A stretch of DNA of 32,000 nucleotides, from contig JAWAHN010000001.1 in NCBI GenBank assembly GCA_038889235.1, positions 824,499 to 856,498 on the forward strand, given 5' to 3'. The translations under genes and the position numbers were made by a program. Positions 24,256 to 25,548 of this stretch are shown in pieces. The stretch comes from Candidatus Jordarchaeales archaeon (GTDB taxonomy: Archaea > Asgardarchaeota > Jordiarchaeia > Jordiarchaeales > Freyrarchaeaceae). The notes under the pieces were generated by a model. It did not search any database and was not told the origin of the DNA. It was given only the letters and a program-made list of their open reading frames with translations. The stretch's first letter is position 1; the number at the start of each line of letters is the position of its first letter.

Positions 24256-25548
24256 TAAGCCTCCACCTTCCCGAAACAATGCGGCTTACAGCAACTCTTT
24301 GACCGTCCTCAGCGCACACAGGACGGCGTAGCTTAATTTCAACCTCGTCGCCCCTAACCGACGAAATGGTGCCTACGGTTACAGCCGACCCGACATTAAG
24401 CATCAGCGACTCGTTAACATGCACGTTCTCCACCTTTGCAAGCTCCTCGCTCCCCACAACTCTTTCCATTAAGTGAAGCTCGATGCACAAGTCATCGCGC
24501 ACAGGTGGAAGCGTTCCGGGGGCTCCAACAACGTTTCCTATGAGACCATCAGCCTTCGTCAAAGACGGGTCAAGTTTTGTTCCAATACCGATCAAGCCTC
24601 CAGGCAGAGCCTCTTCAAGCCACACGTCACCCGCCTGCAAACTGACAACGTCGGCGTAGATGGGCTCAAATCCCCCCTTACCAGCAACCCCAGGACGTAT
24701 TTCTATTTCGTCGCCAACTCTAACCTTGCCCTGAATTATTGTTCCGCCTATGACTCCTCCAACAAGATCCTTCGGCTTAGTCCCTGGCTTGTTAACATCA
24801 AATGACCTAGCAATGTACATTCTCAGAGGCTTACTTGGGTCCCTGACAGGGTCAGGGATGTGTTTCTCCATGAAGTACAATAAAACGTCTAAGTTGACCC
24901 CTAAGACCGCTGAGACAGGGATGATGGGAGCGTCTTCAGCGAAAGTTCCACTAATAAACTTCTTAATCTGTCTGAAGTTTTCCATCGCCTTCTCCCTTGA
25001 GACAAGCTCGACCTTGTTCTGAACGATAACAATGTTCTTCACACCAACGATTTCCAAGGCTGCAAAATGTTCCCGCGTCTGCGGTTGAGGACACGGCTCA
25101 TTAGCAGCAATAACGAAAATGCAACCATCCATAAGTGACGCACCACTAATCATAGTGGCCATAAGTCTCTCATGGCCAGGCGAGTCGACGAAACTAATCT
25201 TGCGCACAAACTCGGCTTCTCCTCCACACTTCGGGCACTTCCACCCTCCAGCCATAGCCAGAGTGAAATAGTTACCAGGAGGGGGACAGGACGGGCACCT
25301 TAAAACAACAGCGTCAGCGTAACCCAGCTTAATTGTAACCCCACGGCGCTTTTCCTCACTATGACGCGCGGCCCAAATGCCCGTTAAAGCTTGTACAAGC
25401 GTGGTTTTTGGCCCGTGGAAACCTATCCCCACGGATTGCCATGATCAACGTCTCCGGCGCCAACTGTTCAGCAACAACTAGCGTGTCCGGCCGTTCCCAC
25501 GGAAACCAAGGCCTGCGTAGTCATGGCTTTTTTACAAGCTTCACTCAA
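24233..25548 (-). CDS. eif2g: Translation initiation factor aIF2 gamma, spliced: complement(join(24233..25406,25436..25451,25485..25548)), 417 aa
   Basis: Spliced N-terminus MSEACKKAMTTQALVSVGTAG-H-VDHG-K-TTLVQALTG, followed by IKLGYAD, Zn ribbon, DSPGHE, QNKVE and RWRLIG. Alternative start ATG 25524. Confidence 0.95.
25407..25435 (-). other. BHB-type mRNA intron 2 in eIF2-gamma (29 nt)
   Basis: Central helix UGGC/GCCA (perfect), bulges AA^U and AA^A, hairpin CCGUGGGGA-UAGG-UUUCCACGG; in-frame UAG. Splicing gives GGC AAA ACC (G-K-T). Confidence 0.93.
25452..25484 (-). other. BHB-type mRNA intron 1 in eIF2-gamma (33 nt)
   Basis: Central helix CCGG/CCGG, bulges AC^A and AG^A, 11-bp hairpin CGCUAGUUGUU-GCUG-AACAGUUGGCG; in-frame UGA. 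Splicing gives GGA CAC GTT (G-H-V). Confidence 0.93.

Follow-up and report, generated by a model that had tools for sequence, protein, structure and literature searches.

A probable bulge-helix-bulge (BHB) intron, the second of two flanking a 16-nucleotide exon, in the P-loop of the sole aIF2-gamma gene of a Jordarchaeales archaeon

The window, a stretch of 32,000 nucleotides from a Candidatus Jordarchaeales archaeon, carries on its minus strand the sole aIF2-gamma gene of the genome, with a PIN_9/Fcf1-like gene and the EF-1alpha gene as neighbours. The gene is split within its GTP-binding P-loop by what appear to be two small introns of the tRNA type, which enclose an exon of 16 nt. Most of the protein is encoded by exon 3 (24233..25406, stop codon at 24235-24233), whose product comprises the remainder of the G domain, the zinc knuckle and domains II and III (P0001, 390 aa). 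When compared with the TIGR03680 profile, exon 3 alone reached 585.6 bits (cut-off 514.5) in a match that began at profile position 19, the first 18 positions being absent, and it reached 593.4 bits against PRK04000 (cut-off 315). The long ORF at 24233-25432 begins with a GTG at 25432 and reads MGIGFHGPKTT..., i.e. a complete aIF2-gamma minus about the first 18 residues. This start lacking the P-loop, which an earlier note on the same DNA had attributed to the ORF caller, is real, and public protein collections contain the protein in this form too. The G1 motif GHVDHGKTT was found in no single open frame of the DNA and was present only in the product spliced in silico.

Exon 1 (25485..25548, minus strand) contributes 40 nt from the ATG at 25524-25522 down to 25485. 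On the minus strand it reads ATG (25524) ACU ACG CAG GCC UUG GUU UCC GUG GGA ACG GCC GGA C, ending in GGA C with the His codon split as C|AC, and its peptide, (M)TTQALVSVGTAGH, is kept in relatives. It is followed by intron 1 (25452..25484, minus strand), 33 nt long and with a BHB motif, and by exon 2 (25436..25451, minus strand), a micro-exon of 16 nt, ACGUUGAUCAUGGCAA. Exon 2 codes for the rest of the His, then for V D H G, and supplies the two leading bases of the P-loop Lys, and most of its bases are engaged in the two BHB motifs. Intron 2 (25407..25435, minus strand; 29 nt) splits the Lys codon as AA|A, and exon 3 opens with A ACC ACG, that is, with the third Lys base followed by TTLVQ.... 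A conserved in-frame TTG at 25548-25546 (minus strand), located 24 nt upstream of the ATG and preceded by a Shine-Dalgarno-like GGGGG run at 25560-25556, provides an alternative start. By our own reading of the sequence, the peptide that it adds, SEACKKA-M, is similar to the N-termini of relatives (GEAYEKA-M, EA-M-KTQ), and for this reason the TTG, and not the ATG at 25524, may be the true start of aIF2-gamma.

The minus-strand layout around intron 2 is ...GAU CA[UGGC][AA|U]-CCGUGGGGA-UAGG-UUUCCACGG-[GCCA][AA|A] ACC ACG. It consists of a central helix of 4 bp between UGGC (25441-25438) and GCCA (25412-25409), two bulges of 3 nt each, AAU (25437-25435) and AAA (25408-25406), and a hairpin of 9 bp, two of them G-U, with the loop UAGG (25434-25413). 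RNAfold returned this BHB as the minimum-energy fold of pieces of 43 and 53 nt and also inside a context of 151 nt, where the intron 1 motif forms beside it. The 43-nt piece folded with -17.0 kcal/mol (z = -2.8), and none of 200 shuffles folded as well. The earlier note had described a 29-nt insert with precisely this helix, these bulges and a 9-bp hairpin, and both the coordinates and the folding agree with it. No pairing was predicted between GUUGAUCA and ACCACGCU that could form an outer helix, so intron 2 is of the relaxed HBh' type and not of the canonical hBHBh' type; relaxed HBh' substrates have been assigned to (alpha-beta)2 and epsilon2 endonucleases (PMC5829648). For intron 1, RNAfold predicted a BHB with a CCGG/CCGG central helix, the bulges AC|A and AG|A and an 11-bp hairpin, and there is an outer helix AACG/CGUU of 4 bp with one extra unpaired G.

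In the cbf5 intron, the bond that is cleaved joins residues 2 and 3 of the bulge (PMC2738675). Applied to this gene, the rule placed the intron 2 junction at GGC AA|A ACC ACG and that of intron 1 at GGA C|AC GUU, with the predicted mature junctions ...GGCCGGAC^ACGUUGAUCAUGGCAA^AACCACGCUUG. With both introns taken out, the sequence ...GTAGHVDHGKTTLVQ... aligned without gaps to intact homologues, and the message spliced in silico encodes ...SVGTAGHVDHGKTTLVQ.... The product has 409 aa counted from the ATG and is colinear through GHVDHGKTT with the intact homologues of Freyrarchaeum, Freyarchaeum and Odinarchaeum (NCBI names). Because of the A-run, four cut registers yield an identical mature sequence, and the BHB rule picks AA|U among them. 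The register proposed before, GGC AAA ACC ACG, is therefore the one that matches the published rule. The claim that the intron 2 cut restores GHVDHGKTT was correct for the part contributed by that cut, but to complete the motif intron 1 (25452-25484) must be taken out too.

A scan of the window for compact BHB shapes, defined by a helix of 4 bp, a pair of 3-nt bulges and a hairpin whose stem has 8 bp or more, gave five, compared to a mean of 1.7 per shuffled window; the shape alone is weak evidence and not significant. What takes the case beyond chance is that the cuts set by the rule hit the sole junction restoring the frame and the G1 motif, that this occurs twice within 80 nt (16 nt apart), and that the structure covaries in relatives. 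Mobile repeats were considered and rejected, since a blastn-short search of both introns against the whole genome revealed no further copies, only chance matches of 10-13 nt. No homing endonuclease adjoins aIF2-gamma, the small ORFs of the upstream spacer belonging to no Pfam family. The hairpins might also be taken for recoding signals that let the ribosome bypass the inserts (hopping, as in phage T4 gene 60) or shift frame, and a stable hairpin does lie right after the interrupted codon in each insert. Matching take-off and landing codons are absent, however, and the ribosome would have to hop twice within 80 nt, over 33 and 29 nt. Moreover, a 4-bp helix and 3-nt bulges conserved across the exon-intron borders would be superfluous for bypassing, and among the relatives the insert varies in length from 29 to 31 nt with the junction remaining exact, all of which makes recoding highly improbable.

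Near-identical proteins carry the NCBI names Candidatus Jordarchaeales or Jordarchaeia archaeon. We compared six distinct Jordarchaeales-type sequences, obtained from four matching species representatives of the family, two Logan-run contigs and two JGI metagenome contigs. Intron 2 was present at the identical site in all six, with lengths of 29, 30, 31, 29, 29 and 30 nt. Between species the hairpins show essentially no sequence relationship, yet each still folds. Synonymous exon changes from CAU GGC to CAC GGU or CAC GGC, which turn UGGC into CGGU or CGGC, are matched on the intron side by changes from GCCA to GCCG or GUCG. The RNAalifold consensus for the set was the BHB; 94.9% of cells were paired vs 76.3% in shuffles, and 8 of the 13 pairs (7 of the 9 aligned hairpin pairs) had changed on both sides. 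The covariation score reached 0.713, compared to 0.338 for shuffled and at most 0.25 for slid controls. The fold of intron 2 is thus kept in relatives with compensatory changes. These data also bear on an assembly or sequencing artefact, a concern with a metagenome-assembled genome (2.14 Mb, 95% complete, 8 contigs). The inserts recur in independent assemblies from different samples and pipelines (among them Ga0105162, Ga0105158, SRR32459163, SRR24425229 and NCBI MAGs), differing in sequence and sharing structure and position, and we give an artefact next to no weight.

Intron 1 was found in three of the six sequences, with 33 nt here, 34 nt in L047 and 30 nt in L004. In L004 its CCGG/CCGG helix has become CUGG/CUAG, a compensatory change, and in L047 the 3' bulge must be of 4 nt (CCGG GAG|A) in order to hold the frame. 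The three sequences that lack it (L005, L048 and L006) show an uninterrupted GGN CAY GUN GAY, which is the exact predicted junction. In the sister family of the same order, the P-loop was intact in all six genomes, including the closed 3.6-Mb genome of Freyarchaeum deiterrae (NCBI name). As an observation on gene calling, intron 2 of L047 (L047:1501-1600, Logan SRR32459163; P0123) has 30 nt and no stop codon, and the public gene call consequently reads through it, producing the P-loop VDHG-NPLGVSSRGP-KTT with an insertion of 10 residues. No protein of the spliced form was detected among relatives and cluster members in a collection of 15 billion proteins, where the calls were without exception truncated or read-through. 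From the metagenome scan came just two contigs, both from close relatives and both intron-bearing at the DNA level.

The products spliced in silico from all six sequences have 409 aa and no gaps relative to intact homologues. Pairwise dN/dS values were 0.02-0.08, with synonymous sites near saturation. Over exons 1 and 2 (19 codons), sequences differed by 7-19 nt but by only 1-4 aa, none of them within the G1 motif. This pattern indicates that aIF2-gamma is under strong purifying selection in all three exons, and selection at the protein level on such small exons would make no sense unless they shared a translated frame with exon 3. In translational GTPases the G1 Lys is required for nucleotide binding. 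A different view would be that the gene is a decaying pseudogene, or that a protein without P-loop is made from the GTG at 25432, with GTP binding dispensable or supplied elsewhere, and public gene calls do begin downstream of the P-loop. Such a view is extremely hard to reconcile with the established need for the G1 Lys, the low dN/dS across species, the protein-level conservation of the small upstream exons, the maintenance of the arrangement in six lineages and the fact that this is the only copy in a 95%-complete genome.

Regarding copy number, a search of that genome for another intact aIF2-gamma, whose existence would have contradicted the earlier note, returned none; the next matches were the paralogues SelB (TIGR00475, 307.7 bits) and EF-1alpha. 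The locus L002, tried as a candidate for a second aIF2-gamma, was rejected, as it encodes SelB. This SelB-type factor (G000:C1:350514-351974, L002:1255-2715) has an intact P-loop and is directly followed by an ORF of 395 aa, an arrangement that suggests the presence of selenocysteine machinery in this organism.

A second group of inserts was observed in the same Lys codon in a Lokiarchaeia-type family (NCBI label Promethearchaeota archaeon). All 24 genes inspected (L032, L034-L037 and L112-L130), which were chosen because of their short open frame, contained an AT-rich insert of 29-32 nt located one base upstream, as GGN A|...|AG ACN. Its structure comprises a helix of the AUGG/CCAU type, 3-nt bulges and a hairpin, with a G-A mismatch at one central-helix pair in six of the sequences. 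Using the open frame as a proxy, the intron occurs in about 30 of 121 species and in at least 8 genera, with a patchy distribution within genera. When intron-bearing and intron-free congeners were compared (G164 vs G162 and G163), the intron-free DNA showed the predicted junction. RNAalifold found no consensus in this AT-rich set. For a named structure, derived from one member, 77.9% of cells were paired vs 63.1% in shuffles, and the covariation score, likewise for the structure of that one member, was 0.395 compared to 0.163 for shuffled and at most 0.27 for slid controls. The offset of one base, together with the lack of such introns in the lineages in between, speaks for separate gains of the Jordarchaeales-type and Loki-type introns.

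Previous work has established that the cbf5 pre-mRNA of Crenarchaeota (Desulfurococcales and Sulfolobales) contains a BHB intron (Watanabe 2002; Yoshinari 2006; Yokobori 2009 = PMC2738675). The introns described here share with it a short length, a position in the coding region, a relaxed BHB, the cut between the second and third bulge residues, a host with heteromeric EndA, and a patchy presence with precise absence in relatives. They differ from it in the gene (aIF2-gamma), in the phylum (Asgard), in that two introns occur within one ORF, and in having a 16-nt micro-exon inside a catalytic P-loop. Splicing of cbf5 has been shown experimentally, whereas that of aIF2-gamma is predicted from the DNA sequence. 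Most probably, the aIF2-gamma introns add to the kind that cbf5 first revealed, with the unusual feature that one catalytic loop, in an essential Asgard gene, contains two introns together with a micro-exon. A further compact BHB of 29 nt lies in the cbf5 gene of the window itself (11389-11417, plus strand), with a CACU/GGUG helix, the bulges AGA and AAA and a GC-rich hairpin of 7 bp. The upstream ORF ends with ...KTGHAGTL and then leaves the frame, and the downstream ORF resumes with ...AIGSATKLVQAL, which places the insert at the TruB motif GHxGTLDP, where the catalytic Asp resides. The insert would amount to an Asgard example of a cbf5 intron.

Multi-intron tRNA genes have been reported in Jordarchaeia, Freyarchaeia and Atabeyarchaeia (Valentin-Alvarado 2024, PMC11291895; bioRxiv 10.64898/2026.10.13.758758). 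These tRNA introns resemble ours in lineage, in being short and BHB-type, in their non-canonical sites, in the occurrence of several per gene with tiny exons, and in repeated gains and losses, but in aIF2-gamma the substrate is an mRNA whose reading frame has to be restored to the base. Introns in tRNA are the sole kind treated in the available sections of PMC11291895, and neither 'mRNA' nor 'cbf5' occurs anywhere in the text of the 2026 preprint on Asgard tRNA introns (bioRxiv 10.64898/2026.10.13.758758). In Haloferax volcanii, the HVO_1309 mRNA is cut by the splicing endonuclease via a BHB (Schwarz 2020, PMC7714728; reviewed in PMC10485636). As proposed here, a BHB motif makes an archaeal mRNA a target of the tRNA splicing endonuclease; the case is, however, a single euryarchaeal one with an alpha2-type enzyme and does not interrupt a catalytic motif of an essential gene. 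The literature that we covered on BHB introns in protein-coding or Asgard genes, which included few subscription-journal papers, yielded cbf5 and HVO_1309 and no paper on an aIF2-gamma intron; within it, cbf5 has for more than 20 years been the only gene with a coding-region intron of the tRNA type. A 2023 review counted two archaeal mRNA targets in all and expected more.

A parallel also exists with the eukaryotic HAC1/XBP1 mRNAs, in which splicing starts with cleavage by IRE1 and, in metazoans, ends with ligation by RtcB. Common to both systems are a removal that does not involve the spliceosome, a short mRNA intron that changes the frame, paired stem-loops, and joining of 2',3'-cyclic-phosphate and 5'-OH ends of the RtcB type. 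Unlike aIF2-gamma splicing, which appears to be constitutively required, HAC1/XBP1 splicing is a regulated stress switch, with IRE1 as nuclease and another motif. RtcB and XBP-1 are mentioned in PMC8718801.

The genome encodes two EndA homologues (PF01974, 111 and 77 bits; TIGR00324; open frames of 205 and 195 aa) and one RtcB (PF01139, 600 bits). This set fits the (alpha-beta)2 EndA reported for Asgard archaea, in which an L1 loop confers broad specificity (PMC5829648). On the basis of the structure, the cut rule and the conservation, we consider that 25407-25435 is, with a probability of about 0.88, a genuine BHB intron of the tRNA type, carried by the pre-mRNA of the genome's one aIF2-gamma gene, and the second of two that flank a 16-nt micro-exon. 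The reading put forward earlier, an intron in the P-loop Lys codon of aIF2-gamma, is supported. As the only aIF2-gamma gene is cut inside the GTP-binding loop, a working protein very probably needs its mRNA to be repaired by tRNA-splicing enzymes. The exon UGGC would pair with GCCA at the 3' end of the intron, leaving a 3-nt bulge on each strand, and the intron hairpin would close the motif. A heteromeric EndA belonging to the (alpha-beta)2 class would then cut after the second base of each bulge, and RtcB would join the 2',3'-cyclic-phosphate and 5'-OH ends. With intron 1 removed likewise, the message would read GGA CAC GUU GAU CAU GGC AAA ACC ACG, i.e. the G1 motif GHVDHGKTT. That cleavage and ligation occur, which enzyme is responsible and in what order the two events proceed are points that we infer from the DNA. 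The 16-nt exon pairs with exon 1 by only 4 bp; cutting both introns before any ligation would leave it held by that helix, and ordered cut-and-ligate steps are therefore assumed.

The inserts could conceivably leave the RNA through some other nuclease and ligase pair, or act as a regulatory switch that makes only a fraction of the transcripts translatable. The absent outer helix of intron 2 would fit this, as would deviations from the motif such as the 4-nt bulge in intron 1 of L047 and the G-A central-helix mismatch in several Loki-type introns. Against it, the conserved features are those that EndA measures, namely two 3-nt bulges 4 bp apart; the cut rule gives the correct junction at four independent sites (both introns here, the Loki-type site and the window's cbf5); and the genome has genes for EndA alpha, EndA beta and RtcB. 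We regard another enzyme pair or a switch as very unlikely, and removal by EndA and RtcB remains the preferred reading.

If this reading is right, a translation factor that is essential and conserved universally has a catalytic loop that is not encodable without two such splicing events and an exon of 16 nt. Public gene calls for the family are either N-terminally truncated without the P-loop or read through the intron, and since they are damaged at this loop, annotation pipelines and marker-gene phylogenies make use of damaged sequences. Questions that become testable are whether EndA/RtcB splicing of mRNA is routine in these lineages, what keeps a micro-exon in place meanwhile, and whether the capacity for translation is linked to that for tRNA splicing.

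A broader and more tentative idea, which we consider possible but rather doubtful, is that the aIF2-gamma P-loop Lys codon is a place where, across Archaea, endonuclease-spliced introns repeatedly land or are retained, and that mRNAs of the translation apparatus in intron-rich Asgard archaea depend on the tRNA-splicing machinery. It is based on the occurrence of AA|A in Jordarchaeales-type genomes and, in one Lokiarchaeia-type family, of A|AG in roughly every fourth member, and two translation-apparatus genes with putative introns of this kind, aIF2-gamma and cbf5, lie in the window. Were it true, production of the initiation factor would be coupled to the capacity for tRNA maturation, and close prokaryotic relatives of eukaryotes would regularly express protein genes that are split and contain micro-exons.

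The divergent aIF2-gamma and EF-1alpha genes are separated by an ORF-free spacer of 1.4 kb (25550-26964), which is A-rich on the plus strand with an AT skew of 0.40. Rfam and ARAGORN searches detected nothing in the window or in the spacer; in the spacer there was no Rfam match even at E<=1, and its small ORFs were without Pfam match. In the related strain L047 the same spacer measures only about 620 nt.
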